DNA of 27,878 bases from an uncultured Ardenticatenaceae bacterium (GCA_964600035.1 CAZRIB010000005.1:1-27878); one strand, 5' to 3'. Shown: positions 50 to 27,837, numbered from the stretch's first letter. The notes: generated by a model from the letters alone, not told the origin. Made by a program: numbers and translations.

Positions 50-1585
50 GTGGCTCAAATAAGTCGTCGAGAATTTCTAAAATTATTGCCAGCCGTTCCA
101 CTTTTCAAAGTGACATGGCCATACCTGGTTACAGAGGCAGCAAAATATCAGCAAGACCCTAACAGCCCCAACATTCTCTTCCTTATCTTCGACACATTTT
201 CCGCCAAACATATTTCCATGTACGGCTACCAAAGGGAGACCACACCCCACCTGGCTGCATTGGCAGAGCGGGCAACCATCTTCCACAGCCACAGGGCAGC
301 GGCAAACTTCACCTCACCGGGGACATCCTCCATTTTGACCGGAACATACCCCTGGACGCACCGTGCCTTTCATTTGCACGGCCTTGTTAATGAGGCATAT
401 GCTGACAAAAACATCTTTAGTCTGCTGCCAGACCATTACCATAAAGCCGCCTACACCCACAATTTGCTGGTTTTTTCCCTGCTGCACCAATTTCGCAGCC
501 ACGTAGATGATTTGCATAAAACCCGGGAACTGTGTTTGTCTGACACGCAGTTTGCCGACCGCCTTTTCTTTAATGATTACAGCCCGGCATTTTGGGGTGA
601 ATGGCTGGCCCTGCGCGGCGGCGCAACACCGCCATCTTCTTTGTTCCTGTCTATGGTAGATCGGGGACGGCGTTTTTTGAATAAACACCAGATTGAAGCG
701 GAATATGCGGCAGATTACCCGCGCGGTATTCCCAATTTGCACAGCCTGTATTTCCGGCTGGAAGATGCGATTGACTGGATTGGTGAGCAGGCGGCAGGCT
801 TGCCACGGCCGTATTTTGGATACTTCCATCTGCTGCCACCTCATGAACCTTACACCACCCACCGCGACTACATTGATGTATTTGCCGATGGCTGGCAGCC
901 CGTTGAAAAAGAAAAGGGTTTTGTTGGCGAAGGTATTCCACAGGCAAAGCTAAACAAAGAGCGGCGGGCTTATGATGAGTATATTGCTTTTGTGGATGCT
1001 GAAATCGGCCGTTTGTTCGCTAAAATGGAAGCGGATGGCGTGTTGGATAACACCTATGTGGTGTTGACATCCGATCATGGTGAACTGTTTGAGCGCGGCA
1101 TTCGCGGCCATGTGACGCGGGCATTGTATGACCCGCTTTTGCATGTGCCGTTGATGATTGTGAAACCCGGTCAGCAAAAACGGGAGGATGTATTTAGCCA
1201 TACCAGTGCGGTTGATTTGCTGCCTACCTTTTTGCATGTAACCGGCCAGCCCGTTCCAGAGTGGGCAGAAGGGCAGATTTTGCCCACATTTACAGATGCC
1301 GCACCAGACGGTCAACGGCCGACTTTTTCACTTGAGGCAAAAAGTAATGCCAAACAAGGCCCGTTAACCAAAGCGACAGCCACGATGGTAAAGGATGATT
1401 ACAAGCTGATTTACTATTTTGGGTATCGGCCAGGGGAAGAGTTGTATGAGTTGTTTGATTTGAAAAATGACCCTGAGGAGTTGACGAATTTGGTTGATGT
1501 GAAAACGGCCGTATTCGCCGACATGCAGACCGAACTAAAACGTAAAATCGAAAGCGTCAACGAACCATTTGCGCACAAATCCTGA
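50..1585 (+). CDS. Tat-exported sulfatase-like hydrolase/transferase (alkaline phosphatase superfamily)
   Basis: N-terminal SRREFLK twin-arginine motif. It has the PNILFLIFDT metal-binding start, TSPGTSSILTG in place of CxPxRxxxLTG, HLLPPHEPY, VVLTSDHGE and LHVPLMI. GTG start preceded by GGAGCA (39-44). Confidence 0.85.
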   Translation: MAQISRREFLKLLPAVPLFKVTWPYLVTEAAKYQQDPNSPNILFLIFDTFSAKHISMYGYQRETTPHLAALAERATIFHSHRAAANFTSPGTSSILTGTYPWTHRAFHLHGLVNEAYADKNIFSLLPDHYHKAAYTHNLLVFSLLHQFRSHVDDLHKTRELCLSDTQFADRLFFNDYSPAFWGEWLALRGGATPPSSLFLSMVDRGRRFLNKHQIEAEYAADYPRGIPNLHSLYFRLEDAIDWIGEQAAGLPRPYFGYFHLLPPHEPYTTHRDYIDVFADGWQPVEKEKGFVGEGIPQAKLNKERRAYDEYIAFVDAEIGRLFAKMEADGVLDNTYVVLTSDHGELFERGIRGHVTRALYDPLLHVPLMIVKPGQQKREDVFSHTSAVDLLPTFLHVTGQPVPEWAEGQILPTFTDAAPDGQRPTFSLEAKSNAKQGPLTKATATMVKDDYKLIYYFGYRPGEELYELFDLKNDPEELTNLVDVKTAVFADMQTELKRKIESVNEPFAHKS

Positions 1586-1630
1586 AACCAACCTGAGTCA
1601 CCTGACACTTTTTTAACAACAAGGAATGGG

Positions 1631-1737
1631 ACACAGATTGACACAGATAAACTCCGTAATCCGTAATTCGTAATTCGTGTGCTCTACCTCTGGTAACTTC
1701 GTCGGAAAACGGTATACGGACTTCGGGTTACGGGTGC
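1631..1737. repeat. Intergenic tandem repeats: ACACAGAT x2, (C/T)CGTAAT x3.5, TACGG-type inverse units
   Basis: ACACAGATTG ACACAGATAA (1631-1650), CCGTAAT CCGTAAT TCGTAAT TCGT (1654-1678) and TACGGACTTCGGGTTACGGG (1715-1734). The last matches the reverse complement of 23404-23421 at 16/18 nt. Confidence 0.8.
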
Positions 1738-1771
1738 TAGATACCAACAAAACAAGAGGAAATTCGGTAAT

Positions 1772-2554
1772 ATGGTAGCCAATTTAAGAAACCTGTATCA
1801 CTATCGAGAAATGCTCGGCATGTGGATCTTCCGTGAGATTCGCGTGCGTTACAAACAATCCTTTTTAGGCGCGGCCTGGGCTATTTTGCAGCCATTGGTA
1901 CTCATGCTCATGTTTACCCTGGTTTTTTCAGTCATGGCGCGCTTCCCCACAGATGGCATTCCATACCCCATCTTTTCCTACACCGCCCTGCTGCCCTGGA
2001 CACTGTTTGCCACATCCGTCAGTTTTGGTGTGTCATCGCTCATCAACAACATGACGCTGGTGACAAAAACGTACTTCCCCAGGGAAGTGCTGCCGATGGG
2101 TGTCATTGGTGCGGCGCTGTTTGATTACCTGATCGCGTCGTCCATTTTCATTGCCATGCTCATCTATTACCAAATTCCGCTGACAATTCACTTTTTGTGG
2201 ATTCCTGTCTTTTTGGTGGTTCAAATTTTCTTGATGATGGGCATTATTTTACTGGGATCGGCCGTAACGGTGTTTTACCGTGATGTGCGTTTTGTGGTGC
2301 CGCTGCTGGTGCAGTTGTGGCTCTATGCCACGCCTATCATTTACCCGGTAACGCTTGTTCCAGAGGCGTATCGCACGTTGTATATGCTTAACCCGATGGC
2401 GGGCATTGTGGAATCTTACCGGCAGGTAATCTTGCGTGGGCAGCCGCCGAATGCGCTGGATTTGGGTCTGGCTGCGGCCGTTTCCGTTAGCCTGTTTGTG
2501 GTGAGTTACATCATTTTTAAGAAACTGGAAGTACGCTTTAACGACATCATATAA
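1772..2554 (+). CDS. wzm: ABC-2 type polysaccharide export permease (Wzm)
   Basis: REIRVRYKQSFLGAAWAILQPL, YATPIIYP and LNPMAGIVESYR motifs; about six TM segments; adjacent to Wzt. Confidence 0.93.
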   Translation: MVANLRNLYHYREMLGMWIFREIRVRYKQSFLGAAWAILQPLVLMLMFTLVFSVMARFPTDGIPYPIFSYTALLPWTLFATSVSFGVSSLINNMTLVTKTYFPREVLPMGVIGAALFDYLIASSIFIAMLIYYQIPLTIHFLWIPVFLVVQIFLMMGIILLGSAVTVFYRDVRFVVPLLVQLWLYATPIIYPVTLVPEAYRTLYMLNPMAGIVESYRQVILRGQPPNALDLGLAAAVSVSLFVVSYIIFKKLEVRFNDII

Positions 2555-2561
2555 AATGTGA

Positions 2562-2623
2562 CAGGTGGCAGGTGGCAGGTGGCAGGTGGCAAGGAACATG
2601 ACCTGCCACCTGCCACTTGCCAC
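2562..2623. repeat. Heptamer (CAGGTGG)n tandem repeat in inverted arrangement forming a 23-bp hairpin
   Basis: CAGGTGG x4 (2562-2589) followed by ACCTGCC ACCTGCC ACTTGCC AC (2601-2623). 2566-2588 pairs with 2601-2623 with one G:T, leaving a 12-nt loop. Confidence 0.92.
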
Positions 2624-2675
2624 GTACTTTGCTTTAATCGTTAATCATCAATCTTTGTTTTTGAAGGAATTATCT

Positions 2676-3953
2676 ATGAAACCTGCGGTACGATTTGAAA
2701 ATGTATCGAAGAAGTATGTCTTGGGAACCGGGCATTCCAGCCTGGGCGCATTAATTAAAACGCCGGTCAAACGGCTGTTGGGACGTCCTGTGCCGGAACC
2801 CCAGGTGTTGTGGGCGTTGAAAGATGCTTCGTTCGATATTGAACCGGGTAAGGCTTTGGGTTTGATTGGGCCAAATGGCTCTGGCAAGACGACTTCGCTG
2901 AAGCTGCTCTCTAAAATTACGTTTCCGACGTCGGGGCGCATTTCGGTAAACGGCCGTATCTCCGCACTCATCGAACTAGGGGCAGGCTTCCATCCAGACC
3001 TCACCGGGCGCGAAAACGTCTACCTCAACGCCACCATATTAGGCATGAAACGCCACGAAATTGATGCCCGTTTTGACCGCATCGTAGAATTTTCCGGGCT
3101 GGAGCGATTCATCGACACACCCGTCAAACGGTACTCATCCGGCATGTACGTGCGGCTGGGCTTTTCCGTAGCCGCCCATGTGGAGCCAGACATCTTGCTG
3201 GTAGATGAAGTATTGGCAGTTGGCGACGCCCAATTCCGCCAAAAGTGTGCCCGCCGCATTGAAGAGCTGCAAAAAAAGGGCACAACCATCGTATTTGTTG
3301 CCCACAACCTTTACCTGGTAAAAAGCGTGTGTGATGAAGCCGTCTTTTTGCTAAACGGACAAATTCAGGACAAAGGGCCGGTAGATGACGTAATTGGCAG
3401 CTATGAAAAGTACCTGCATGAGCTGCAAGCCCGTTCATTGGAAGAAGAAAAAGTAGACCCCTTGCGCAGCGACAGACAGCGCGGCGTGACCACAAATTTG
3501 AAGATAACCGGCATTGATGTGTTAAATGAGCAGGGTAAAAAGCCGGAACAGTTCCACCACGATGAACCTGTGGAAATCCGCATTCATTACCAGGCAAAAA
3601 AGAAGCTGGAAAAGCCAAATGTCATTTTGCGCATTCGCCGGGCAGATGGCACAACAGCGGCCATGATTCGCACAGCTGATTATGGGATGGCACTGGATCC
3701 ATTGGAAGATAACGGCACGATTTCTTTGAAAATTGACCCCATTCAGTTGGCGGGCGGGGCTTATCTGATTTCTGCTTCATTGCAGGGGCCGGTGGATGGT
3801 GTTGGATTGGCCTGGGCAGATTCTCGCTGGTTCCAGGTGTCGGGTGTGAGTGTGAGCTTTGAAGAAAGCGGCGGCGTTTTTGTGCCGAATTTGGCGGCTG
3901 CCAAAGTGATCCCCGGGAATGTGAATCCGCGGGGTGAAAGTGTGCGGGTATAA
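2676..3953 (+). CDS. wzt: Polysaccharide export ABC ATPase (Wzt) with C-terminal Wzt_C carbohydrate-binding extension
   Basis: Walker A GPNGSGKTT, signature YSSGMYVRLGF, Walker B ILLVDEVLAVGD, and a ~170-aa C-terminal extension. Start moved to ATG 2676 (after AAGGA) because the ORF-track extension from 2565 only translates an intergenic repeat hairpin. Confidence 0.93.
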   Translation: MKPAVRFENVSKKYVLGTGHSSLGALIKTPVKRLLGRPVPEPQVLWALKDASFDIEPGKALGLIGPNGSGKTTSLKLLSKITFPTSGRISVNGRISALIELGAGFHPDLTGRENVYLNATILGMKRHEIDARFDRIVEFSGLERFIDTPVKRYSSGMYVRLGFSVAAHVEPDILLVDEVLAVGDAQFRQKCARRIEELQKKGTTIVFVAHNLYLVKSVCDEAVFLLNGQIQDKGPVDDVIGSYEKYLHELQARSLEEEKVDPLRSDRQRGVTTNLKITGIDVLNEQGKKPEQFHHDEPVEIRIHYQAKKKLEKPNVILRIRRADGTTAAMIRTADYGMALDPLEDNGTISLKIDPIQLAGGAYLISASLQGPVDGVGLAWADSRWFQVSGVSVSFEESGGVFVPNLAAAKVIPGNVNPRGESVRV

Positions 3954-3959
3954 GGAGCA
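3954..3959 (+). promoter_or_regulatory. Recurrent Shine-Dalgarno variant GGAGCA
   Basis: GGAGCA lies 3-5 nt before the starts at 50 (GTG), 3965 (TTG), 13562 (TTG), 22111 (ATG) and 27241 (ATG), at positions 39, 3954, 13552, 22101 and 27232. Confidence 0.65.
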
Positions 3960-3964
3960 GGCAT

Positions 3965-5659
3965 TTGGCTAACCGGAAAAAGACGTTGTTGGTTGGATTG
4001 GATGCGGCGTGCTGGTCTTTTGTACGGCCGTTACTGGACGCTGGCAAAATGCCCGCCCTTTCTCGTTTAATGGCTGGCGGCACAGCCGGAACGCTGGACT
4101 CTACCATGCCAGCCCTGACACCGGCGGCGTGGTCGTCCATTATTACCGGCAAAAATCCGGGGAAACACGCCATCTTTGACATGACGCGCCGCCGTCCGCA
4201 CAGCTATGAGAGTATGCCGGTAAACGGCCGTATGCGGTTAGGCACACCATTTTGGAAACGGCTCAATGAGGCAGGCCTTCGCGTGGGGCTGGTCAACATT
4301 CCCTTTACCTACCCGCCGGATGAGGTGGCAGGCTTTGTGGTTCCCGGCTTTGGCGCACCGGGGTCTGTGTCCAATTTGGTGTACCCGCGTGAAGCACTGG
4401 CCGATATTGAAGAAAAGTACGGCCGTTACGAACCTGTGGTGTCACCGGAGCTGTTAAGAAGCGGCCGTTACCAGGACATTTACGAAGCCGAAGCCCACCA
4501 TCAGGCCAACCAGGTTGCCATTGCCATTGACCTGGCCGCCAAATACGATGTGGACGTGCTGGCCATCAACCTGATGCTGCTGGACCACATGAACCACAAA
4601 ATGCCCGACATAGAGCGGGTAGAAGCGGCCATTTTGCAGTTGGACAAAGATTTGCAGGCTTTGCTGGATGGCTTTGTGCCGGATAACGTGATGGTCATTT
4701 CTGACCACGGCACGCGGCGGGTAAAAGGGGACTTTTTGCTGCACGTTTGGCTGCGGGACAATGGCTATTCTGTGCAAAAGAAACGCCTGCCGACGGAAAA
4801 AGCGGCCATTGTGAACTGGATTTTTGTGCAGTGGCTGCAGCGTCACCGGGGCTGGTCTGGTTTTGGTGAAAAGGCTGCCCGCTTTTTGCTGCGAAAAATG
4901 GTGGCGGCACTGCCTGCGGGCTGGCTGAAGGGATTTTGGGCGCGGGTAGAGCGGGATATTCCCGGCGCGCAGGTGTATGCCGAATTTAGTGAGGAACTGG
5001 ATTATGAAAAGACGCGGGTTTATCCCGGCGCATCATATTCCAGTGTGTTGTACTTTAATGTGAAAGGGCGCGAGCCGCAGGGTGTGGTTGATCCGGCAGA
5101 GGTGGCGGCGCTGGCGGCGGAGATTCGGCAGAAGTTGACGGCCGTTACCGACCCGGACAGCGGCGAACCCTTGTTTACGGCCGTATACACCGCCGACGAG
5201 CTTTACACAGGTGCGGCCAAAGTCATTGCGCCAGACATCATCATAGACAGCTACGCCGCAAAGTGGAACATTCTCTCCACTTTTCGGCGGGGGGCGCACG
5301 CCGAAGCGCTGCGAGACCGGTATTTTGCCAACAATTTCAAGGATTTTGGGCATCACAGCCGCGATGGCATTTTTGTGTTTGCCGGGGAAGCTTTTCGCAG
5401 TGACGGTTCTTTTGGCACGGCGGGGTCTGTGATGGATGTGCCGGCGACGCTGCTGCATTTGTGTGGTGTGCCTGTGCCGAATGATTGGGACGGCCGTTCC
5501 CTGACTGAGACGTTTAATCCGGCTTTTCTGGCTGCCCATCCTTTGACTTGCCAGCCCGGTGATGCGGAAACGGCCGTGACGTTTGATGATGGGCTGTACA
5601 GTGATGAGGAAAATGACGAGATTTTTAGCCACTTGCGGGCATTGGGTTACGTGGACTAG
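3965..5659 (+). CDS. Alkaline phosphatase family protein (type I phosphodiesterase/nucleotide pyrophosphatase-like)
   Basis: LLVGLDAA, STMPALTPAAWSSIITGKNPGKHAIFD, VMVISDHG, GHHSRDGIF and C-terminal LRALGYVD. TTG start after GGAGCA (3954-3959). Confidence 0.85.
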   Translation: MANRKKTLLVGLDAACWSFVRPLLDAGKMPALSRLMAGGTAGTLDSTMPALTPAAWSSIITGKNPGKHAIFDMTRRRPHSYESMPVNGRMRLGTPFWKRLNEAGLRVGLVNIPFTYPPDEVAGFVVPGFGAPGSVSNLVYPREALADIEEKYGRYEPVVSPELLRSGRYQDIYEAEAHHQANQVAIAIDLAAKYDVDVLAINLMLLDHMNHKMPDIERVEAAILQLDKDLQALLDGFVPDNVMVISDHGTRRVKGDFLLHVWLRDNGYSVQKKRLPTEKAAIVNWIFVQWLQRHRGWSGFGEKAARFLLRKMVAALPAGWLKGFWARVERDIPGAQVYAEFSEELDYEKTRVYPGASYSSVLYFNVKGREPQGVVDPAEVAALAAEIRQKLTAVTDPDSGEPLFTAVYTADELYTGAAKVIAPDIIIDSYAAKWNILSTFRRGAHAEALRDRYFANNFKDFGHHSRDGIFVFAGEAFRSDGSFGTAGSVMDVPATLLHLCGVPVPNDWDGRSLTETFNPAFLAAHPLTCQPGDAETAVTFDDGLYSDEENDEIFSHLRALGYVD

Positions 5660-5665
5660 AACAAA

Positions 5666-6964
5666 ATGGTAACAAAGACAATGGCGGTACAACAGAAAAC
5701 GGCCGTTTCTCCCAAGGCGCTAAAAGTGGCATATGTTATGCAAAACGTCGGCGTCGATCTGGCGTCTGATTTGGGGCAGGTGATTCTTATTCGCCATACG
5801 GTGCAGGAGTTGATGGCACGCGGCCATGATGTGGATGTAATTACGCTGAACGGCCGTGATGTGTTGGGCATTGATGACATTCACTATCCCAAAGAAACAT
5901 GGCAGGCTAAACAAGGTGTTGCCGGGACACGGCCGTTTCGTTGGTTAGAAAGTGCCATTCGCCGCTTGCAGCGCGAAACAAAATTTCCCTATCTGGCCTT
6001 GTTCGACTCCTTCCGCTTTTACCAGGCCACCCGCCGAGCTTTGGCACACTATGACATTTGCCACGAATACGCCGGGCTGCTGAGCGTTGGGGCGGCCTAT
6101 GCCTGCAAAAAATCAGGCAAGCCCTACGTCATCACCGCCGATGCGGACTTACTGTTGGAACACGCCGTTGCCGGTGAGCCGCTGCATGGTATTCAACAAA
6201 AAATGGCGCGTTGGGCGGCCAAAACCAATTACCGGCTGGCCGACAAAATTATTTGTGTCTCTGAACCAGCGCGGAAAAGTCTGGTGAATCATTGGGATGT
6301 AGACCCGGCCAAAATTGAGGTGATTCCCAATGGGGTTGATGTAGCATTGTTTAGCCAGCCAGTGGATAAAACGGCCGTTCGCCGCCAGTGGCACATTGCC
6401 CCAAACGTCCCCGTCATCATGTTTGTGGGCGGATTTCAGCCCTGGCATGGCATTGATGTGCTGGTCAACAGCTTCGCCGACCTGCTGGTTTCCTTTCCGG
6501 ATGCACAACTGCTGCTGGTTGGCGATGGCCCCGCACGCGAAAATATTGAAGCTCTGGTACAATCCCGGCAGTTAAGCAGCAACGTCCACATGACTGGCCG
6601 CATCCCCCACGCTTACATTCCGTCCCTGCTTGCCATCGCTGATGTCGTCACCATTCCCTACCCCCGGCTGCCCAGAGAACTGTGGTTTTCGCCGCTTAAA
6701 CTGTATGAATACATGGCCGCCGGCAAGGCCATTGTGGCTTCACGTGCCGGGCAAATTGGAGAGGTGTTGGTAGACCGGCAAAATGGGTTGTTGGTAGAAC
6801 CGGGCGATGAAGATGCCTTGACGGAAGCAATTGTTACGCTGCTCCGCCATCCTGAACTGCGTGCCAAATTGGGTTTGCGGGCACAGCAGCAGGCTAAAAC
6901 GGAGCATTCCTGGGGCCGTCAGGTGGAGCGTCTGGAAGCGGTGTATTGGGAGATTGTCGGTTGA
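5666..6964 (+). CDS. Glycosyltransferase family 4 (GT-B)
   Basis: VIPNGVD, MFVGGFQPWHGI and FSPLKLYEYMAAGKAIVAS motifs. Confidence 0.92.
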   Translation: MVTKTMAVQQKTAVSPKALKVAYVMQNVGVDLASDLGQVILIRHTVQELMARGHDVDVITLNGRDVLGIDDIHYPKETWQAKQGVAGTRPFRWLESAIRRLQRETKFPYLALFDSFRFYQATRRALAHYDICHEYAGLLSVGAAYACKKSGKPYVITADADLLLEHAVAGEPLHGIQQKMARWAAKTNYRLADKIICVSEPARKSLVNHWDVDPAKIEVIPNGVDVALFSQPVDKTAVRRQWHIAPNVPVIMFVGGFQPWHGIDVLVNSFADLLVSFPDAQLLLVGDGPARENIEALVQSRQLSSNVHMTGRIPHAYIPSLLAIADVVTIPYPRLPRELWFSPLKLYEYMAAGKAIVASRAGQIGEVLVDRQNGLLVEPGDEDALTEAIVTLLRHPELRAKLGLRAQQQAKTEHSWGRQVERLEAVYWEIVG

Positions 6965-7090
6965 AGAGTGAGGATTGAAGATTAAAGATTGAGGATTAAA
7001 GATTAAAAGATTGGAGATTGGGGATTGGGGATGTCTTTAATCGTTAATCATCAATCATCATTCATTAATCATCATTCATTATTCATTATT
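6962..7090. repeat. Heptamer GATTRRR tandem array followed by a T(T/C)A(A/T)TC(A/G) array (STRR-like)
   Basis: GATTGAA GATTAAA GATTGAG GATTAAA GATTAAA..GATTGGA GATTGGG GATTGGG, then TTAATCG TTAATCA TCAATCA TCATTCA TTAATCA TCATTCA TTATTCA. Confidence 0.9.
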
Positions 7091-7107
7091 TACTGGAAAA
7101 GTGTGTC

Positions 7108-8457: not shown

Positions 8458-8575
8458 TTATTGAGTCTGCCGAAAAAACCGCAAAGAGCACAAAGAAACG
8501 CCAGAGAAAAAATTTGTGAAATTCGTGAAATTCGTGGCTTTTTTCGGGGCAGTCATATTTGCACTTTTTAGTTTT

Positions 8576-8656: not shown

Positions 8657-8701
8657 CTTTTGCGCTTTTCTGAAATATGTGAATGCTTACCCAGTAACAA
8701 T

Positions 8702-10183: not shown

Positions 10184-10188
10184 CAACT

Positions 10189-19049: not shown

Positions 19050-19874
19050 ATGTTTTCACAAATCGTATCCATAGCAGGGGAAGAACTCCGCTACCAATAC
19101 GTGCAAATTCGTCAAAAATTGACCCAAAACCACCACATACCAGCTAAAGTGCTGGTCAATGGCAGCCCCAAATCGGGCACAACCTGGATGGTGAAATTGA
19201 TTTCGTCTCTACCCGGCTACCGGGAAGTAGGCAATTATCAGGGGGATTTTCAAAAGTATTATCAGAGCGAATCGGGGGATGTCATTCATGGGCATGATCC
19301 GTTTTCTTTGGAATTAAAGCAGATTTTGGCTGAAGCAGGAATCAAGGTTGTGTTGATGGTGCGAGATCCACGTGATCAGTTGGTCTCGCGGATGTTCCAC
19401 ATAAAGCGCAGCCCCAAGCATGTCTGGCATGATCGCATGCAGGATATTGGCGTTGATGAAGCGTTGATGATGTGTATTGAAGGGCGTGAAAATTTACCGG
19501 CTACCAGTCAGGTAATTGCGCTTGCCCAGACGTGGATGGTTCCTGAAGCGGAGATGTTGTGTGTGCGTTATGAAGATATGCTGGCTGATCCGGTGACGCA
19601 TTTTTCCAAGGTGATGCAGTATATTGGCATGGAAGCGGATCATTTGCTGGCGCGGGTGGTGGTGGAGCGTAATCGCTTTGAGCGCCTGTCTGTGGGGAAG
19701 CGTATCTGGCAGCAGCAGCGGCGGCCTGGCCAGGAAGATGCCAACTCTCATTTTCGCAAGGGGATTGCGGGTGACTGGCGTAATTATTTGAAGCCGGAGC
19801 ATATTGCCCGTTTTAAGGAGTTGGCTGGCCGCCAGTTGATTGAGTTGGGCTATGAACAGGATATGGATTGGTAG
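19050..19874 (+). CDS. Sulfotransferase (Sulfotransfer_1-like)
   Basis: 5'-PSB GSPKSGTTW, 3'-PB MVRDPRDQLVS, and C-terminal RKGIAGDWRNY matching the RKGxxGDWKNxF motif. Confidence 0.9.
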   Translation: MFSQIVSIAGEELRYQYVQIRQKLTQNHHIPAKVLVNGSPKSGTTWMVKLISSLPGYREVGNYQGDFQKYYQSESGDVIHGHDPFSLELKQILAEAGIKVVLMVRDPRDQLVSRMFHIKRSPKHVWHDRMQDIGVDEALMMCIEGRENLPATSQVIALAQTWMVPEAEMLCVRYEDMLADPVTHFSKVMQYIGMEADHLLARVVVERNRFERLSVGKRIWQQQRRPGQEDANSHFRKGIAGDWRNYLKPEHIARFKELAGRQLIELGYEQDMDW

Positions 19875-19880
19875 CCTGTG

Positions 19881-20798
19881 ATGGTGAAGCTTTCTGTTGT
19901 GATTGTTAGCTGGAATACGGCCGATTTGCTGCGGGCATGCTTGCGCTCTGTTTATGAGCATCCGCCAACGGTGACGTTTGAGGTTTGGGTGGTGGATAAT
20001 GCGTCGCATGATGGTAGTGCGGAGATGGTGCGGCGTGAGTTTCCGCAGGTGAAACTGGTGGCGAAGGATGTGAATGGGGGGTTTGCGGCAGGAAATAATG
20101 AGGCGCTGCCGCTGTGTGCCGGGGAGTATGTGCTGTTGTTGAATCCTGATACGGTGGTGAAGCCGAATGCGCTGCAAGCGTTGGTGGATTTTTTGGATGA
20201 AACGCCGGATGCAGGCGCGGCGGGGTCGATGCTGTTGAACCCGGATGGTTCTTTGCAGCCGTCGGCTTTTCCGGCGCCGACGCTGCGGCGGGAGTTGTGG
20301 CGGTTGTTTCATTTGGACAGGATACGGCCGTATGGCATTTACCACATGCAGCAGTGGGACACGGCCGTTCCCCGTGAAGTAGACGTACTGCAAGGGGCAT
20401 CCTTGCTCATTCGCCGCGACATTTTGAACCAGATTGGCTTGTTCGACACAACCTACTTTATGTACTCCGAAGAAGTCGATTTATGCCGTCGGCTGCAGTT
20501 GGCTGGCTGGCGGTTGTATTGGGTTCCTGCTTCTCGCGTGGTGCATTATGGCGGGCAAAGCACCCGGCAAATTGCAGAGCAGATGTTTATTCAGCTTTAC
20601 CGGGGCAAGCTGCTTTATTTTCGCAAGCATTACGGCCGTTTTCATGCGTGGGCATACAAAGCAGTTTTGGCACTGGCTTCCGTGGCGCGGCTGGCACTCA
20701 CCCCGCTGGTCGTGGTGCAGTCCGCCGAAAAACGGCAGCAAAGCCTGACATTGGCGCGGTATTATGCCCATCTTGTCAAAGCCATTCCCTCCTTTTAA
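19881..20798 (+). CDS. Glycosyltransferase family 2 (WbbL-like)
   Basis: LSVVIVSWN, VVDNASHDGS, GFAAGNN, LLLNPD and YFMYSEEVDLCRR. ATG 19881 or GTG 19878. Confidence 0.92.
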   Translation: MVKLSVVIVSWNTADLLRACLRSVYEHPPTVTFEVWVVDNASHDGSAEMVRREFPQVKLVAKDVNGGFAAGNNEALPLCAGEYVLLLNPDTVVKPNALQALVDFLDETPDAGAAGSMLLNPDGSLQPSAFPAPTLRRELWRLFHLDRIRPYGIYHMQQWDTAVPREVDVLQGASLLIRRDILNQIGLFDTTYFMYSEEVDLCRRLQLAGWRLYWVPASRVVHYGGQSTRQIAEQMFIQLYRGKLLYFRKHYGRFHAWAYKAVLALASVARLALTPLVVVQSAEKRQQSLTLARYYAHLVKAIPSF

Positions 20799-22066
20799 TG
20801 AACGTTATGACCGAATCCAAGATGAAAATTTTGTTTTTGACCCAAATTATTCCATATCCCCCGGATGCCGGGCCGCGTGTCAAAACGTGGCACGTGCTGC
20901 GCTATCTTATTGAGCGAGGGCATGAGGTGACGCTGGCTTCTTTTGTGCGGCCAGATGAGGAGCGCCATGTACCTGTGTTGGCGGAGCTGTGCCATGCGGT
21001 GCATACCGTTCCCATTCGCCGGTCGCGGGTGGCTGATGTGGGTTTTTGGCTGCGCAGTCAGGTGACGAGACGGCCGTTTTTGATTGAACGGGATGATTTG
21101 CCGGGTATGCGCCAATTGGTGCGCCGCCTGCTGGCGGAGACACCTTTTGATATTGTGCATGCCGACCAACTGACGATGACGCAGTTTGCGCTGGATGCGC
21201 TGGAAATGGGGGAGAAACGGCCGTACACGATTTTCGACGCCCACAACGCCACCTGGACAATTTCGGCGCGTATGGCAGAAAACATGCCCTGGTTTCTTAG
21301 ACCTGTTGTCAAGCTGGAAACTGCCCGTATTCAAAAATATGAGGCCATGTTGGTCGAGCAGTTAGACCATACGATGGTGGTGATTGCCCCTGATCGGGAA
21401 GCGCTGCTGGCTGCAGCCGGAAACGGCCGTGCCGCCCGGTTAGCCCCAAAAATCTCCGTTATTCCCATTGCCGTTGACACAAACGTTTTGCAGCCTGTCA
21501 AACGCAGCCCGGCATCGCTCAACATTTTGACATTGGGGTCATTAAATTATCCGCCCAACGCCGATGGCATCCGCTGGTTTGTGCGGGACGTTTTTCCGCT
21601 TATCCGGCAGGAAGTACCGGATGTTACATTGACCGTCATCGGGAAAAACCCGCCTGCTGATTTTGTGCGCTGGGCTGAACAGGAACCGGCCGTTTTTGAT
21701 GTGACAGGCTACGTGGAAGATTTGACGCCCTACATGGAAAAGGCCGCCTTGATGGTTGTGCCGGTGCGGGCTGGCGGCGGTATGCGTGTGCGTTTACTGG
21801 AGGCTTTTTCCCGGGCTATGCCCACTGTGACCACCACGATTGGTCTGGAAGGGATTGAAGCGGAATCCGGGCGGGAGGTGTTGGTGGCAGATTCGCCGGA
21901 AGAGTTTGCGCGGGCGGTGCTTCATTTGCTGCGTAACCCTGCTTTGCAAGATCATTTGGCGGAACACGGCCGTATCCTGGCACAAAAGAAATATGACTGG
22001 CGTGTTGTCCTGGCAAAAATGGATGCCGTCTATCAAAAAGCCAGACAGCCATTCTCTAACCATTAA
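20798..22066 (+). CDS. Glycosyltransferase family 4
   Basis: MKILFLTQIIPYPPDAG, TLGSLNYPPNADG and GGGMRVRLLEAF. Start at ATG 20798 (TAATG overlap) or 20807/20822; the ORF-track extension from 20483 is rejected. Confidence 0.9.
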   Translation: MNVMTESKMKILFLTQIIPYPPDAGPRVKTWHVLRYLIERGHEVTLASFVRPDEERHVPVLAELCHAVHTVPIRRSRVADVGFWLRSQVTRRPFLIERDDLPGMRQLVRRLLAETPFDIVHADQLTMTQFALDALEMGEKRPYTIFDAHNATWTISARMAENMPWFLRPVVKLETARIQKYEAMLVEQLDHTMVVIAPDREALLAAAGNGRAARLAPKISVIPIAVDTNVLQPVKRSPASLNILTLGSLNYPPNADGIRWFVRDVFPLIRQEVPDVTLTVIGKNPPADFVRWAEQEPAVFDVTGYVEDLTPYMEKAALMVVPVRAGGGMRVRLLEAFSRAMPTVTTTIGLEGIEAESGREVLVADSPEEFARAVLHLLRNPALQDHLAEHGRILAQKKYDWRVVLAKMDAVYQKARQPFSNH

Positions 22067-22110
22067 TCTTTCATCCATCAATCATCAACCTTTATTCACA
22101 GGAGCAACAG

Positions 22111-23403
22111 ATGCTTAACCGCGTGTGGGAAAATCCTCGCCGAACATTAACAGCCATCATTATCGTGGCGGTGCTGCTGCGGGTGGGGGCAGCGCTGTAT
22201 ATTGGCAACACCATCGAAGCGCTACCCGGCATTTTTGATGAAGTGTCTTACCATACGCTGGCGCTGCGGGTGCTGGATGGGCATGGTTTTTCTTTTGGTG
22301 AACGGTGGTGGCCGGCAACGGCCGCAAACGCCCCAACCGCACACTGGTCCTTTTTGTACACGCTGTACCTTGCCGGAATTTATGCCCTGGTTGGCGAATC
22401 GCCTTTGGTGGCGCGGGTGATTCAGGCGGTGTTGGTGGGGATTGCCATGCCCTGGCTGGCGTTTCGGTTGGCACTGCTGGTGTTTGCGCAGTGGGGGCAA
22501 AAGTATGCGGAAAAGGTTGGGCTGGCGGCGGCGGCGGTAACGGCCGTGTACATTTATCTCTTTTACTATGCGGCTGCACTCATCACCGAAAGTTTCTACA
22601 TCACCGCCATCATGGCTTCGTTCTACTTTGCCTTTCGTATCCAGAAGGCCCAAAATGCCCGGCTGTCTGATTGGGTGTGGCTGGGTGTTTGTTTAGGGGT
22701 GACTGTGCTGCTGCGGCAGTTGTTTTTGTTGTTTGTGCCGTTTTTGCTGCTGTGGCTGTGGTGGGCAGTGCGCCCGTCGTTGTGGCGGCTGGTCTTGCCT
22801 CTTGTTCTCATCGGTATGATGGTGGCCCCTTTTACCGTGCGTAATCAGCGCGTATTCGGCCGTTTTGTCCTGCTCAATACCAACTCCGGGTATGCTTTCT
22901 TTTGGGGCAACCACCCCCGGTACGGCACAAAATTCATTCCTATTTTGCCTTCCCGCGAATATTACGAAATGATTCCCGATGAACTGTTGGCGCAAGGGCT
23001 AAATGAAGCGGAACTGGAGTCTGAACTTTTATCTTTGGGCTTGGGGTTTGTTTTTGATGATTTCGGCCGTTACATCAAACTGTCATTAAGTCGCATTCCT
23101 GCTTACTTTGTTTTCTGGCCGTCGTCACAATCATCTACCATTTCCAACATTTCCCGCGTGGGCAGTTTTGGCCTGTTTTTGCCTTTCATGGTGTATGGGC
23201 TGGTGTTGGGTTTGCGCAAACGGGCTGCTTCATTTGCCGATTGGCTGCGTATGCCGCAAACGCTGCTGGTGCTGTTCATGTTGTTTTACACAGCCCTGCA
23301 CGTGCTTACGTGGACACTGATTCGTTATCGGATTCCAATTGATGCGATATTGATTTTGTATGCCGGTTTAGCGCTGGTAACAATTGAAGAAAAAATCTTT
23401 TAG
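22111..23403 (+). CDS. ArnT/PMT (GT39-like, GT-C) membrane glycosyltransferase
   Basis: Polytopic, with IFDEVSY acidic loop, ITESFY, LLRQ, PFTVRN and RYRIP. GGAGCA at 22101-22106. Confidence 0.78.
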   Translation: MLNRVWENPRRTLTAIIIVAVLLRVGAALYIGNTIEALPGIFDEVSYHTLALRVLDGHGFSFGERWWPATAANAPTAHWSFLYTLYLAGIYALVGESPLVARVIQAVLVGIAMPWLAFRLALLVFAQWGQKYAEKVGLAAAAVTAVYIYLFYYAAALITESFYITAIMASFYFAFRIQKAQNARLSDWVWLGVCLGVTVLLRQLFLLFVPFLLLWLWWAVRPSLWRLVLPLVLIGMMVAPFTVRNQRVFGRFVLLNTNSGYAFFWGNHPRYGTKFIPILPSREYYEMIPDELLAQGLNEAELESELLSLGLGFVFDDFGRYIKLSLSRIPAYFVFWPSSQSSTISNISRVGSFGLFLPFMVYGLVLGLRKRAASFADWLRMPQTLLVLFMLFYTALHVLTWTLIRYRIPIDAILILYAGLALVTIEEKIF

Positions 23404-23468
23404 CGTAATCCGAAGCCCGTACACCCGTGATTGGGATGCAGATAACGGGTTACGGGCAACGGATTACG
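23404..23468. terminator. Long imperfect hairpin between convergent genes; candidate bidirectional terminator built from CCGTAAT/TTACGG heptamers
   Basis: CGTAATCCGAAGCCCGTACACCCGTGAT (23404-23431) pairs with ATAACGGGTTACGGGCAACGGATTACG (23442-23468). It starts immediately after the + strand stop (23403) and ends 8 nt before the - strand stop (23477). There is no clear U-tract. Confidence 0.55.
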
Positions 23469-23476
23469 GATACCGT

Positions 23477-24589
23477 CTACATACCAAAACAGTAATTTGT
23501 AAAGAAGCAGATGCGCCAGCTTATCCAGCCGATTTGTGAGAACAGGTACCACAGGTATGCGCCAATGAGCAGCACTCCGGCGTAACGGCCGATTGCCCAG
23601 CGCCGTACGATTAACAAAAACAACAGCGCTATCACCGTTGCAAACAAGAGAATAACAGAAGATTCCAGGTTTTCTGTAACAACCTGCATATTTTCACCGC
23701 GCCACAAAATGATGAACACCCAGGGCAGGCCCAGCCCAATGGCAATATCGAAGATGTTGGAGCCGACAGCATTGGCAATGGCCATGTCGCCTTGTCCTTT
23801 TCTGGCAACGACAATGGAACTCATCAGGTCGGGAATGCTGGTTCCGGCGGCCAGAATGGTGAGAGCGATGATGACTTCTGGTACACCGATGGCGTGGGCA
23901 ATTTGTACGGCCGATTCCACCATGAGGTGTGAAAGCAAGGCCAGAAAAATGATGGAGACGGCAAAGTTGAAGATGAGGAGATGCGGCCGTTTCCGCAAAT
24001 CGGCAAAAAAGAGCGACAACGTTTTGTCCAGCACATTGCGCCATGTCCACCCGCTGGCACGCAGGGCTTGTTGGGGACTTTCCTCCTCCTCCTCATTTTG
24101 CGCATTATCCGCCTCAATTTCATAAGGCAGCCACTTCTTCCACAGGCCAAACGAGAACAAGTAAACGACATACAAGCTCACATACATGAGCGCGTCAACC
24201 AGAGTGATGGTGCCATCTCGAAACGTAAACAGCAGCAGCAAGATGCAGACAATGTAAAAAATCAGGTCACGGATGACAGGCTGCCATGTCAGCACAGCCC
24301 GTTTAACCAATGCCGAAGCCCCAATAATGACCAAAATGTTAAAAATGGCTGACCCCACAATTGTGCCAGCACCCATTGCCTGCTGTTCCTGCACCCGAAA
24401 CAGCGCCAAAATGGAAACAAACAACTCCGGTGCAGATGAGCCGACTGCCATGAACGTAGCCCCGGCAATATCGGAGGAAAGTTTCAGCCGGTCAGAGATA
24501 ATTTCCAGCGTTTCAACAAAATAGACTTCTACAACCTGGGCGAGCAGGTAAAAAGCCAGTAACAGTTCCAAAATCCACAGGATGATCAT
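23477..24589 (-). CDS. Calcium/sodium antiporter (CaCA family, NCKX-like)
   Basis: Alpha-1 repeat GATFMAVGSSAPELF...GTIVGSAIFNIL and alpha-2 repeat ILAAGTSIPDL...GDMAIANAVGSNIFDI. Two 5-TM halves joined by an acidic loop (NEEEEES). Confidence 0.9.
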   Translation of the reverse strand: MIILWILELLLAFYLLAQVVEVYFVETLEIISDRLKLSSDIAGATFMAVGSSAPELFVSILALFRVQEQQAMGAGTIVGSAIFNILVIIGASALVKRAVLTWQPVIRDLIFYIVCILLLLFTFRDGTITLVDALMYVSLYVVYLFSFGLWKKWLPYEIEADNAQNEEEEESPQQALRASGWTWRNVLDKTLSLFFADLRKRPHLLIFNFAVSIIFLALLSHLMVESAVQIAHAIGVPEVIIALTILAAGTSIPDLMSSIVVARKGQGDMAIANAVGSNIFDIAIGLGLPWVFIILWRGENMQVVTENLESSVILLFATVIALLFLLIVRRWAIGRYAGVLLIGAYLWYLFSQIGWISWRICFFTNYCFGM

Positions 24590-24955
24590 GATTACTTTTT
24601 TGCTTCCTTGTTTGTTGGTGTGTGCCTGTTTTGTACGGCGAGATTTTTACAGGGTCAGAAGGATACACGCAAATTGAAAAACACAAAAACTGAAGGCGGG
24701 TTGGTGTAAGCCGGTTGGTAAGAAAGGATCGTTACTATTCCACTGTAAAAGCCAACAATGATAAATAGCTTGGTTACATGTTGAACTTTTTTCTGAAATG
24801 GGGGAGCCATCGTGAACGGCTGGGCAAACCACAAAAGGTGTTTGAGTGTGAGAACATCTTTTTCCTTGTGGGCTGCTTGTGTAATTGGCAAAAAATCCCG
24901 GGTGTTTTTGTGCTAATTGCATCACACATTGTTGGCGCCATGAATTTATCTGCTT

Positions 24956-26182
24956 ATGGATGTACTCTTTATTGTTCCCTATGTGCCCAATTTGGTGAGG
25001 ACACGCCCCTATAACTTTATTCGAGCATTGAGTGAGCGCGGTAACCGGGTGACGGTGTTGACTGTGCGCGCCAGTGAAGCGGATGAGGCGGATTTGGCTG
25101 CGCTGCGAAAGATGGTGTATGCGGTGGAGGCGGTGTCTTTGCCTGTTTGGCGTTCCCTGCTGAATTGTTTGCCGGCTTTGTTGTCGGGTGTGCCTTTGCA
25201 AACACGCTTTTCGTGGGATGCGGGTCTGTTTTCGCGGTTAAACGGCCGTTTCCCCTTTGACGTGGTTCATGTCGAACACCTTCGTGGCGTGCGCTATGCC
25301 CTGCATCTCAAAAAACACACCCAACTACCCGTTGTATGGGACAGCGTAGACTGCATTACCCATTTGTTTAAGCAGGCCGCTGCACAAAGCAAAAACAATA
25401 TGCTTCGCTGGCGCAGCCGCTTTGAATTGGGGCGCACAGAGCGGTATGAGCGGTGGCTTTTGGACAAATTTGACCAAATTTTGGTGACGTCGCATCTGGA
25501 TAGGGAAGCGATGCAGTCGCTGAACCCCCAACAGCCAGCACCCATTACGGTGGTTCCCAATGGGGTGGATTTGAACTATTTTCGGCCAGACACGGCCGTT
25601 ACCCGGCAAGAAAAATCACTCGTTGTCAGCGGCAAGATGAGCTACCACGCCAATATCAGCATGGTGCTGCATCTTGTGGAAAAAATTATGCCGCATGTGT
25701 GGCAAGAACAGCCAGACGTGACCCTCACCATTGTGGGCAAAGACCCGACCAAAGAGGTGGTGGCATTGGCTGAACATCCAAACATTACAGTAACGGGGAC
25801 GGTGCCGGAGATACGGCCGTATCTCCAACAAGCCGCCATCGCCCTCACCCCACTCACTTACGGCGCAGGTGTCCAAAACAAAGTACTGGAAGCAATGGCC
25901 TGCGGCACACCCGTTGTCAGCACAACACGCGCCATCAAACCGCTGGGTGTCCAGCCGGGGCGCGCTCTCCTGGCTGCCGATGACCCGGCCCAATTTGCCC
26001 GGCACGTCCTGGAACTGCTGGCAAACCCGGCACAACGCGCCCAAATCGGCCGTGCCGCCAGAGCATACGTAGAACAGAACCACAACTGGCACACACTGGC
26101 TGGAGACCTGGAGCAAATTTACCAACAAGCAAAACATCAACACAACCCGGTATTCAAACAAGCCGCCACAGCCGCAAAATAG
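24956..26182 (+). CDS. Glycosyltransferase family 4
   Basis: VVPNGVDLNYF, VSGKMSYHANI and GAGVQNKVLEAMACGTPVV. Confidence 0.92.
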   Translation: MDVLFIVPYVPNLVRTRPYNFIRALSERGNRVTVLTVRASEADEADLAALRKMVYAVEAVSLPVWRSLLNCLPALLSGVPLQTRFSWDAGLFSRLNGRFPFDVVHVEHLRGVRYALHLKKHTQLPVVWDSVDCITHLFKQAAAQSKNNMLRWRSRFELGRTERYERWLLDKFDQILVTSHLDREAMQSLNPQQPAPITVVPNGVDLNYFRPDTAVTRQEKSLVVSGKMSYHANISMVLHLVEKIMPHVWQEQPDVTLTIVGKDPTKEVVALAEHPNITVTGTVPEIRPYLQQAAIALTPLTYGAGVQNKVLEAMACGTPVVSTTRAIKPLGVQPGRALLAADDPAQFARHVLELLANPAQRAQIGRAARAYVEQNHNWHTLAGDLEQIYQQAKHQHNPVFKQAATAAK

Positions 26183-26253
26183 GTCATTTTCAACGAATTA
26201 GAATCGTTGCAATTAGTTTGTGTAATGGAACAATAGCAAAGGTGTAGCAGTCC

Positions 26254-27231
26254 ATGATCATTGTGCAATCCCCATTAAGAGTTAGTTTGTTCGGCGGCGG
26301 AACCGATTTCGCCGACTTTTACAAGGAACATGGCGGGTGTGTCCTGTCCTCCGCCATCGACAAATTCATCTTCGTCACCATAAAACAGCGTTTTGATGAC
26401 AAAATTCGCGTTGGCTACACACGAACAGAAATGGTAGACAGCATCGATGAAATTCAACACGAATTGATTCGAGAAGCACTCCGGGTTACGGGCATCCAAA
26501 AAGGGGTGGAAATTACCACAATGGGCGACATCCCCTCCGAAGGTTCGGGGCTGGGTTCTTCCAGCACAGTTACCGTAGGGGCTTTGCATGCCATGTATGC
26601 CTACCAAAAGGAATTGGTGCTGTCGGAGCGGTTGGCGCGGGAAGCCTGCTACATTGAAATTGAAAAATTAGGAAAGCCCATTGGTATCCAAGACCAATAC
26701 ATTGCGGCTTATGGTGGTTTGCGTTTTATGGAATTTATGCCGGATGGGCGGGTAGTTGCTAATCGTGCTGTCTTTGATGACCATACGCTGCGCCGTTTGA
26801 ATGAAAACCTGCTTTTGTTCTTTACAGGTGTTACGCGCAAAGCCGATAACATTCTTTCAGAACAAAAAAGCAACATTCAGGATAAAACATCAATTTTGTG
26901 CCAGATGAAATCCATTGCTTACACAGCGTTTCAGGAACTGCAAAAAGGGCATTTTCGGGCGATTGGTGAGCTTTTGGATGAGAGCTGGCAGTTGAAGAAG
27001 CGGCTGGCCAGCCAAATTAGCAACGGTGTGCTGGATGAGATGTATGAAACGGCAAAGGCGGCCGGGGCAATTGGCGGCAAAATTTCAGGCGCGGGCGGCG
27101 GCGGTTTTTTGTTGGTTTATGTGCCTAAAACACATCATGAGGATGTGCGGCAGGCGTTGAGTCATTTGCAAGAATTACCGTTTCGATTGGGGCAGGATGG
27201 CAGTAAGGTCATTTTTGATTATCAACGATGA
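26254..27231 (+). CDS. hddA: D-glycero-alpha-D-manno-heptose-7-phosphate kinase (GHMP kinase)
   Basis: [31 protein letters not shown] and [12 protein letters not shown]; adjacent to gmhA. Confidence 0.85.
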
Positions 27232-27240
27232 GGAGCAGCG

Positions 27241-27837
27241 ATGAATCACGTAAGACATTATTTTTCGGAAATAACAGAGACTTTGACGCGCATTGATGAA
27301 GGCCCGATTAATCAGGTGATTGGTTTGCTGCATGAGGCACGGGTAAACGGCCGTCAAGTGTTCATCATGGGCAACGGCGGCAGTGCATCCACCGCATCCC
27401 ATTTTGTATGCGACCTGGCCAAAAACACCCGCCAGCCAGATTGGCCGCATTACCGCGTTATCGGCCTTACAGACAATATGGCTATCTTTTCTGCCTATGC
27501 CAACGATGAAGGGTATGAAAACGTCTTTGCCATGCAGCTCGCCAATCTGGTACAGCCGGGAGATGTCGTTATCGGCATTTCAACCAGCGGCAACTCGCAG
27601 AATGTATTGCGTGGCATTGCCCTGGCCAATGAAAAAGGGGCTACAACAGTCGGTTTTACCGGTTTCGATGGCGGTAAATTGGCAGGAATGGTTGATATTC
27701 ATTCCCACACACCCAGTTATTGCATTGAACACGTCGAAGATATTCACTTGATGCTGGAGCATTTAATTACCAAAGTGCTGCGGGAGATGACAGAAACCGT
27801 TGCTGTTGAGCAATGTCTTGGCACATCTGTGTCATAA
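27241..27837 (+). CDS. gmhA: Phosphoheptose (sedoheptulose-7-phosphate) isomerase, SIS domain
   Basis: [44 protein letters not shown] and EDIHLMLEH. Confidence 0.88.

Follow-up and report, generated by a model that had tools for sequence, protein, structure and literature searches.

The question raised by this locus is whether the octamer palindrome ACGGCCGT, which is scattered along a 27,878-nucleotide stretch of DNA from an uncultured Ardenticatenaceae bacterium (CAZRIB010000005.1, the whole of which is called the window here), is a highly iterated palindrome (HIP), and what would keep it in place. The window is contig C5 of a metagenome-assembled genome (MAG), designated G000, of 4.35 Mb in 706 contigs, 97% complete and with a GC content of 52.2%; the contigs seen were of ~20-30 kb and the window (27.9 kb, 51.8% GC) is among the largest. 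Genomes are given G numbers and genera g numbers, whether they belong to the same GTDB family (121 species) or to other families. ACGGCCGT is a true HIP of this hot-spring Anaerolineae genome, and its excess is both real and larger in extent than the first-pass annotation of the window had said.

Between positions 805 and 27354 the window contains 53 exact copies of ACGGCCGT, whereas 100 dinucleotide-preserving shuffles gave a mean of 0.46 and a maximum of 3, which agrees with the 53 against ~0.5 originally claimed. As had also been reported, all 53 copies lie in long open reading frames (ORFs) and every frame is used, with 26 copies read as ACG GCC GTn, 17 as nAC GGC CGT and 10 as nnA CGG CCG Tnn. 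The 10-bp palindrome AACGGCCGTT is reached by exactly 14 of the 53, the minimum that had been given, and perfect palindromy extends over 8 bp in 35 copies, 10 in 11, 12 in five, 14 in one and 20 in one. The figure of ~18 further CGGCCG cores proved too low, 22 being counted, but their mostly one-off nature held (20 of 22) and the examples named at 1005, 1315 and 23983 were found.

The enrichment is not confined to this locus. G000 carries 8,329 copies, one per 522 bp (~1,900 per Mb), with an observed/expected ratio (O/E) of ~107 against base composition, close to the ~100-fold first proposed, and copies were found on all 320 contigs of at least 5 kb. ACGGCCGT is the most over-represented 8-mer of the genome and remains top under an order-3 Markov model, while AACGGCCGTT is the top 10-mer (2,975 copies, O/E 677). 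The Markov O/E of ACGGCCGT was 116, 50 and 29 at orders 1, 2 and 3; models of higher order swallow the excess only because the sub-words on which they are built are the motif itself. Segments of 5 kb contained 2-22 copies (mean 9.3, variance 11.1) and local spacing on the contigs was near-exponential, with a coefficient of variation (CV) of 0.97. Using a crude set of 3,482 coding sequences (CDS), 7,641 copies (92%) were located in CDS and 652 were intergenic, with frame counts of 4,049, 2,352 and 1,063; after correction for local composition the O/E was 101 in coding and 152-165 in non-coding DNA. Nor does the excess disappear when codon and amino-acid usage are taken into account: 7,464 copies in CDS compare with 816 +/- 31 after synonymous codon shuffling within genes and 539 +/- 22 after re-coding of the same proteins with HIP-free codon usage. 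Both nulls already lie 7-10 times higher than base composition would predict, since the peptides that the motif encodes are over-represented in the proteins.

The extent to which the motif occupies its possible sites is evident from individual tripeptides. In G000, Thr-Ala-Val is written ACG GCC GTN in 98.1% of cases (expected ~10-12%) and [Y/H/N/D]-Gly-Arg is written nAC GGC CGT in 90.4% (expected ~5%), and 66% of permissive x-Arg-Pro-x contexts bear the motif. The tripeptides TAV and NGR each occur at 7.0 times their expected frequency in the proteome, with permuted tripeptides at 0.6-1.8 times (VAT, ATV and TVA at 0.6-0.8), and it follows from this excess that the motif has altered amino-acid sequences. 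An example is provided by RpoB, where x-R-P, encoded by nnA CGG CCG T, is common to HIP-rich genomes at a site at which relatives have x-E-P. A short DNA motif can therefore shift the frequency of particular tripeptides 7-fold proteome-wide.

Genome-wide, the bases flanking ACGGCCGT are conserved in a graded manner, with A at -1 in 60% of copies, A at -2 in 46%, G at -3 in 52% and G at -4 in 51%, mirrored on the 3' side, and conservation ends at +/-4. Such symmetric flanks suggest that a putative reader is dimeric, with a footprint of ~16 bp. One-off variants at position 1 or 8 are common where the substitute is G or T (O/E 6-7) and near expectation for C (1.3). All 18 one-off variants of the core (positions 2-7) had an O/E of 0.1-1.7, falling to 0.1-0.6 at the centre, which was read as at or below chance, and they are scarce although 8,329 sites are exposed to mutation. 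As CGGCCG with two non-cognate flanks occurs at about chance level, the selected unit must be the octamer or something longer rather than the EagI hexamer. Repetitive extragenic palindromes and miniature inverted-repeat transposable elements, which exceed 20 bp and are intergenic, were ruled out, the unit here being of 8-16 bp and mostly within genes.

Dialects of the palindrome across the family

RpoB relatives place G000 in the Chloroflexota, class Anaerolineae, in keeping with the earlier suggestion of a Chloroflexota-like lineage bearing a HIP with a core of its own; a HIP-type palindrome therefore exists outside the cyanobacteria. The closest RpoB records, at 84-87% identity, come from MAGs of independent studies and have 2-3 copies per 2 kb of rpoB. 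Public sequencing runs showed G000 to be present in hot-spring metagenomes, and a strain ~8% divergent from it was found in later separate studies.

Within the family the distribution proved wider than had been guessed. Densities, computed by hand from counts, reached at least 0.8 ACGGCCGT per kb in 60 of the 121 species, the highest count being 15,492 copies in 7.7 Mb, and 14 more species were dominated by another octamer. Spectra of k-mers, taken on 40-160-kb samples of apparently ACGGCCGT-poor genomes, revealed TCGGCCGA in G012 (O/E 78), the NotI site GCGGCCGC in G021 (O/E 67), CCGGCCGG in G001 and G045 (O/E 15) and TGCCGGCA in G015 (O/E 100), in which CGGCCG itself had an O/E of 0.1; no enriched palindrome was detected in the samples of G014 and G017. 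TCGGCCGA is dominant in g13, g41 and one g42 species (3,685-9,442 copies), GCGGCCGC in g22 (10,592-12,688) and TGCCGGCA in g16 and g20 (3,639-8,850), with a moderate excess of the last also in G073, a species of g46 (924 copies). Several flank types occur together in G041, G043, G009, g7 and g10, motifs differ within genera (G046 against G073, G041 against G069), and two sister genera, g15 and g18, are without any HIP. ACGGCCGT is thus the local dialect of a family-wide system built on a CGGCCG core, one clade of which has switched to TGCCGGCA.

Each dialect shows its own saturation and its own distortion of the proteome. S-A-[DE] occurs at 4.7 times expectation in G012 and is motif-encoded in 87% of cases, A-A-A at 4.6 times in G021 (96%) and TAV at 6.5 times in G008 (98%), whereas in G014 and G017, which have no HIP, the tripeptide ratios stay close to 1. 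The motif is carried by near-closed genomes too (G124, G103 and G008, in 2-9 contigs). No CGGCCG excess was found in 127 genomes of 53 other Anaerolineae families, in which the ratio of CGGCCG to GCCGGC was at most 1.9; the composition-matched ratio was 7.8-10.9 in G000 and G048. In an RpoB tree, genomes of the CGGCCG type occur in all major clades, with g15+g18 and the TGCCGGCA clade nested among them, which fits a HIP that arose once, in the ancestor of the family, and was later lost or switched in some lineages, on a tree whose backbone is weakly supported. Within rpoB, four sites are common to 13-20 genomes and 10 are lineage-specific, with relatives showing synonymous alternatives.

The dialects also differ in what they avoid. 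G015, of the TGCCGGCA type, is nearly without CGGCCG and GGCCGGCN and has a NotI-like restriction-modification (R-M) pair; in 85 kb of G021, of the GCGGCCGC type, GCCGGC does not occur; and no more than 2-14 copies of CGCCGGCG are present in G021, G041 and genus g10. Avoidance is in this sense reciprocal. Beyond the family, strong asymmetry of CGGCCG against GCCGGC was seen in families f40, f52 and f43 and in G205, as with 19 against 1,525 copies in G234, 243 against 5,065 in G207 and ~25,000 GCCGGC per 3 Mb in f43, for which avoidance of restriction, GC content or additional iterated palindromes could be responsible.

Candidate readers and rival explanations

Clues to what maintains the motif come from where it is rare. 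Poisson expectation for genes of at least 1.5 kb lacking a copy in G000 is 16.6, against 33 found, and the longest of them encode PFOR, EF-G, UvrB, NusA, FtsH, an H+-pyrophosphatase, a PBP and three abundant solute-binding proteins; these genes are the most constrained or highly expressed ones, and none is mobile DNA. In HIP-rich relatives, too, the motif is scarcer in the rpoB-rpoC region than in the genome as a whole. Depletion of this kind is the pattern that a genome-wide drive held back by purifying selection would leave. In the TGCCGGCA-rich G064, two R-M regions are almost without the local HIP, one of 4.3 kb having none and one of 10 kb a single copy (Table 1), and the NotI-M4 operon of G063 (M4 is described below) has no copy in ~3 kb; a missing local HIP may mark recently acquired DNA. 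One of the G064 islands encodes a C5-methyltransferase and a BsuBI/PstI-type endonuclease. Among IMG/VR contig stretches with the 14-bp palindrome, 20 of 80 have ACGGCCGT at 1-3.7 per kb. The density is 2-3.7 per kb, equal to or above that of the host, on contigs predicted to be viral or mobile, including L244 (IMGVR_UViG_3300033417_000002), L241 and L316; L244 encodes ParA, the anti-repressor Ant, a transglycosylase and a FtsK/SpoIIIE-like protein and, judged by these genes, looks conjugative or plasmid-like rather than like a lytic phage. Taken together, the HIP-poor R-M islands and the HIP-rich mobile contigs imply that the load seems to build up with residence in cells, in chromosome and mobile DNA alike.

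A search for the responsible enzyme returned no match in G000 to C5-methyltransferases (PF00145), to Vsr (PF03852) or to type I/IIG N6_Mtase. G000 has six DNA methyltransferase genes of other kinds, M1-M6, and five of them fail as correlates of the motif: M2 is sporadic (13 of 121 family genomes), M1, M3 and M6 have no orthologs in the HIP-rich G008 or G011, and the Dam-family M5 occurs in G014, which is without a HIP, and only as a pseudogene in the HIP-rich G012. The PF01555 enzymes of G008, G011, G015 and G000 are not one lineage (24-32% mutual identity), nor are the C5-methyltransferases of G015 and G064, which are not orthologous, and the product of the 471-aa ORF that follows M5, which bears a signal peptide, is no restriction enzyme. 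C5-methyltransferases, in 52 of the 121 genomes, are too sporadic for a family-wide driver, NotI-family endonucleases (11 of 121) are too few for a universal reader, and ComEC does not discriminate, being present in HIP-bearing and HIP-free genomes alike.

The remaining gene, M4, encodes a circularly permuted amino-methyltransferase of 684 aa that has a Cys-rich insert and in which the motifs DPMMGGGTT and TDPPY are invariant. Orthologs were found in 95 of 121 family genomes as against 12 of 127 genomes of other families, and in none of seven TGCCGGCA-type genomes. M4 lies directly downstream of a NotI-family endonuclease gene in G021, G063, G067 and G087 (Pfam E ~1e-53 in three of the four) and is an orphan elsewhere, i.e. 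in most genomes. In the conserved HTH-DUF84-NurA-x-HerA cluster of G008 (L098) it separates NurA from the gene of the DUF84 NTPase, and it adjoins NurA in G011, G012, G021 and G087 also, making five genera; NurA-HerA is an archaeal-type pair for DNA-end resection. The same cluster in G000 (L217, G000:C65:2500-11500) is without M4, which is on another contig. A fragment resembling the M4 N-terminus (63% identity over 73 aa), upstream of a NotI-like gene at 5262-5480 of L202 (G021:C49), may be the remnant of a second or rearranged copy. Searches of PDB sequences gave no match for the NotI-like protein of G063 and only marginal ones for M4, and PADLOC gave only weak HmaB/DUF1156 matches for M4. 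M4 may plausibly be regarded as a CGGCCG-family methyltransferase, but its presence does not suffice for the motif, nor does the motif strictly require it. In G015 the sole C5-methyltransferase is an orphan among housekeeping genes and is directly followed by vsr.

The best overall explanation, and one that is probable if only narrowly so, is a HIP dialect system kept by sequence-specific molecular drive and opposed by purifying selection, with a reader tied to mostly orphan methyltransferases. On any DNA that resides in the cell, near-cognate sites would continually be turned into the palindrome by repair or recombination biased toward the site of a dimeric reader with a ~16-bp footprint. Opposed by purifying selection, the drive would fill nearly every position that the protein sequence allows, would push amino-acid sequences toward the encoded tripeptides and would leave few copies in those genes that are most constrained and highly expressed. 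A tie between the reader and resident methyltransferases, mostly orphan and derived from R-M systems, is probable, the candidate for CGGCCG-type genomes being the M4 lineage, with its NotI-endonuclease partner and its embedding in a NurA-HerA end-resection locus, and that for one TGCCGGCA-type genome the Dcm/Vsr-like pair of G015. Changes in reader specificity would then give rise to the dialects.

A number of observations weigh against such a drive, or against the enzymes proposed for it. M4 is intact in HIP-free g15 (8 of 8) and g18 (2 of 3) and occurs in the 12 genomes of other families without motif enrichment; none of 10 genomes of the clade g3+g10, which bears a HIP (g3 is HIP-rich and g10 intermediate) and does carry C5-methyltransferases, gave an ortholog, and in HIP-rich G012 the gene is frameshifted. 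Its DPPY catalytic motif is more typical of adenine methylases. No ortholog of the G015 methyltransferase-Vsr pair was found in the sister genus g20, which has the same HIP, and the C-to-T one-off variants in G015 are not depleted (O/E 2.2-2.6), so that a signature of very-short-patch (VSP) repair is missing. G000 itself has no C5-methyltransferase or Vsr match, the backbone of the RpoB tree is weak, and no methyltransferase tracks the motif strictly, reader and driver being still only candidates. The association with an orphan CGGCCG or GGCC methyltransferase that the first-pass annotation suggested is accordingly borne out in part: there is a conserved, mostly orphan enzyme that partners NotI-family endonucleases, but it is present in HIP-free genera and missing from the matches in some HIP-rich ones, and a C5 enzyme was not detected in G000.

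A broader proposal can be advanced only tentatively, as a possibility that is more doubtful than the drive itself. HIPs in general might arise convergently from gene conversion or repair biased toward the site of an R-M methyltransferase that is resident and orphaned, possibly by way of the end-resection and recombination machinery in multi-copy chromosomes; in the present family the specificity of the reader would have passed through each of the four outer base pairs, and in one case to a new core, each change rewriting thousands of sites and part of the proteome. If this is true, comparative genomics of the dialects should identify the reader.

It is unlikely, though deserving of attention, that the palindrome is instead a DNA uptake or transfer sequence, an own-kind tag in transformation or conjugation that biased uptake and recombination build up and whose genus dialects form barriers, as do the DNA uptake sequences (DUS) of the Neisseriaceae. 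The dialects do share a constant core at a density of ~1-2 per kb, and proteome distortion with depletion in constrained genes has also been reported for the uptake signal sequences (USS) of Haemophilus; known uptake sequences are nevertheless not palindromes, and uptake-driven motifs usually leave many imperfect copies whereas core one-offs are here rarer than chance. Full-length ComEC channels are encoded by G000 and 28 of 31 relatives tested, but equally by the HIP-free genera (g15 8 of 8, g18 2 of 3), and competence is not documented for the family. A mobile element with ParA, FtsK/SpoIIIE-like and transglycosylase genes at 3.7 copies per kb would suit transfer, and recent work on HIP1, the cyanobacterial palindrome, points the same way (bioRxiv 10.1101/2024.09.10.611283; PMC13756078).

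Somewhat less probable again is direct selection for a chromosome-level role of the site or of its density, whether as a Chi-like, orientation-free signal for NurA-HerA, a marker of self or a binding site that organises the nucleoid. Xu et al. 2018 argued for selection and a link between HIP1 and nucleoid structure (PMC5861425). The position of M4 within or beside the NurA locus in five genera would accord with the first of these roles; the sites, while evenly spread, have near-exponential and not regular spacing (CV 0.97), and they are depleted in the most highly expressed or constrained genes. Two healthy sister genera live without any HIP, switching a functional signal at thousands of sites would be hard to accomplish by selection on each site, and known Chi sites are only modestly enriched. 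The last alternative, that the excess follows from base composition or from codon or amino-acid usage, or was produced in assembly or binning, is refuted. Motif density does follow gene GC (Spearman 0.47) and high-order Markov models do absorb the excess, the latter only since the sub-words they use are the motif, but the count exceeds the codon-aware nulls 9-14-fold, the O/E is higher in non-coding DNA, sister genera of similar biology have no octamer or a different one, and the motif is found both in near-closed genomes and in MAGs from independent studies.

Features of the window and other sequence elements

The ORFs of the window encode sulfatases, GT4 glycosyltransferases, a Wzt-type ABC ATPase, a PMT_2 transferase and similar proteins, and the window is an ordinary glycan-synthesis gene cluster bearing the genome-wide motif load. 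The gaps without copies listed in Table 1 are unremarkable because spacing is near-Poisson. Two pairs of long ORFs on the same strand overlap, 11182-12504 with 12363-13364 by 142 nt and 19878-20798 with 20483-22066 by 316 nt, probably through mis-set starts in a mechanically made ORF list rather than by a frameshift or a true overlap.

Table 1. Locations of the palindrome and of features connected with it; positions refer to the window unless another contig is named.
Feature	Position	Strand	Remarks
Exact ACGGCCGT, first part (start positions; copies span 805..27354)	805, 1505, 2950, 4024, 4224, 4419, 5138, 5177, 5490, 5570, 5699, 5850, 5929, 6371, 7139, 7258, 7387, 7405, 7870, 7946, 8105, 9139, 9950, 10418, 10668, 11901, 12302		
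Exact ACGGCCGT, rest (start positions)	13185, 13795, 14397, 14627, 14855, 15208, 15388, 15983, 16174, 16767, 16947, 17325, 17675, 17762, 20324, 20361, 20632, 21070, 21217, 21423, 21966, 22540, 25242, 25592, 25813, 27347		
22 further CGGCCG cores	1005..27065		20 of 22 are one-off at octamer position 1 or 8
Octamer starts of the 22 cores	1005, 1315, 2258, 2474, 4461, 7759, 9228, 10452, 11596, 16084, 16551, 17364, 19917, 21686, 22318, 22856, 23063, 23585, 23907, 23983, 26046, 27058		
Copy in 14-bp perfect palindrome	7136..7149		Graded symmetric flanks, GGAA-ACGGCCGT-TTCC
Copy in 20-bp perfect palindrome	25807..25826		Longest in the window
Phosphodiesterase-family ORF	3965..5659	+	7 copies; joint densest ORF of the window
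PMT_2 glycosyltransferase ORF	7108..8457	+	7 copies; joint densest ORF of the window
Stretch without exact copy	17770..20323		2.5 kb
Second gap without exact copy	22548-25241		
HIP-free island in G064	L219 = G064:C15, 2189-6494		
HIP-poor R-M island in G064	L220 = G064:C11		

Intergenic arrays of the heptamer ATTGG[G/A]G occur in the window at 7008-7032 (+) and 13512-13536 (inverted). G000 has 160 such arrays of 2-6 units on 128 contigs, whereas four scrambled control heptamers gave none. The unit is the reverse complement of CCCCAAT, which we take to be the repeat unit of the cyanobacterial STRR1 element. Metagenome contigs pile up and join at these arrays. In many MAGs of the family a contig ends ~6 kb downstream of the rpoB match, which suggests a recurrent assembly break near rpoC, possibly at a repeat or a strain-variable region. 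Several palindromes are strongly avoided in G000: CCTAGG, CTCGAG, GGGCCC, GAGCTC and GTCGAC each have an O/E of 0.01 (11-17 copies in 4.35 Mb), about ten more hexamer palindromes an O/E of 0.06-0.1, CTAG one of 0.09 and GATC, despite two Dam-family genes, one of 0.28.

Comparison with known systems

The literature treats HIPs as a cyanobacterial phenomenon (PMC4390886, PMC5861425, PMC13756078), and full-text searches found no report of ACGGCCGT as an iterated palindrome, nor of any HIP in the Chloroflexota. Yet ACGGCCGT has the sequence-level attributes of one, being the top 8-mer, dispersed, present in all frames, in excess beyond codon usage, with end-biased one-offs and with alternates in related lineages. 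Cyanobacterial HIPs occur at 300-2,700 per Mb with an O/E of 55-228 (Elhai 2015, PMC4390886), a range that includes the density and O/E found in G000. Like HIP1 (GCGATCGC), the present motif is a GC-rich octamer palindrome that is scattered over non-coding DNA and every frame of coding DNA, shows palindromic extension, and deviates by one-offs mainly at the first and last base (PMC4390886). It differs in belonging to another phylum and in its core, CGGCCG, which has no GATC inside. HIP1 co-occurs with orphan methyltransferase(s) recognising its core (Elhai 2015, PMC4390886), but a conserved pair of Dam-type and CGATCG-type methyltransferases has no counterpart here, where the candidate is a permuted amino-methyltransferase of NotI-family R-M systems that does not strictly track the motif. 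A long-range periodicity of HIP1, of 10-90 kb along the chromosome, was reported by Xu et al. 2018 (PMC5861425).

Exceptional cyanobacteria have alternate HIPs, namely the TCGATCGA derivative, GGCGCC, GCsGC and rCCGGy (Elhai 2015, PMC4390886). There, as in the present family, related lineages swap outer bases or adopt another GC-rich palindrome, but here the variation is systematic, with all four outer base pairs on one core used by different genera, a switch of core to GCCGGC and several flank types together in some genomes.

The DUS of the Neisseriaceae and the USS of the Pasteurellaceae are also short motifs restricted to a family, with ~1 copy per kb and genus dialects on a conserved core. 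Those motifs too affect the encoded peptides and were plausibly built by molecular drive; they are, however, asymmetric, and uptake that depends on them has been demonstrated by experiment, whereas the palindrome described here is known from sequence, and ComEC does not separate HIP-bearing from HIP-free genera. Their form, an asymmetric 9-12-mer often with inverted pairs at terminators, is not that of a perfect palindrome with 92% of copies in CDS. In E. coli, VSP repair by the Dcm/Vsr system inflates a methyltransferase site, CCWGG, through biased mismatch correction. The orphan C5-methyltransferase immediately followed by vsr in G015 is a comparable arrangement, but the effect in E. coli is small and that seen here ~100-fold. 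A methylation site inflated in this manner was rejected, with no PF00145 or PF03852 match in G000 and T variants in G015 above expectation (O/E 2.2-2.6).

What is new here is an independent origin, a new core and a systematic series of dialects, the HIP as a kind being already known. For these Chloroflexota, which are abundant in the environment and in wastewater, the motif strongly affects k-mer-based binning, the inference of codon usage and methods that rely on restriction. HIP1 has been without a settled origin or function for ~30 years, partly because it was known from one phylum with little informative variation. As HIPs were known only from cyanobacteria, the family constitutes a second, independent system from which to learn what creates them, and it is a natural experiment in that at least five motif types, two genera with none, within-genus contrasts and mixed-flank genomes occur side by side. 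Contrasts of this kind could help to pin down the protein responsible and to tell drive and selection apart.

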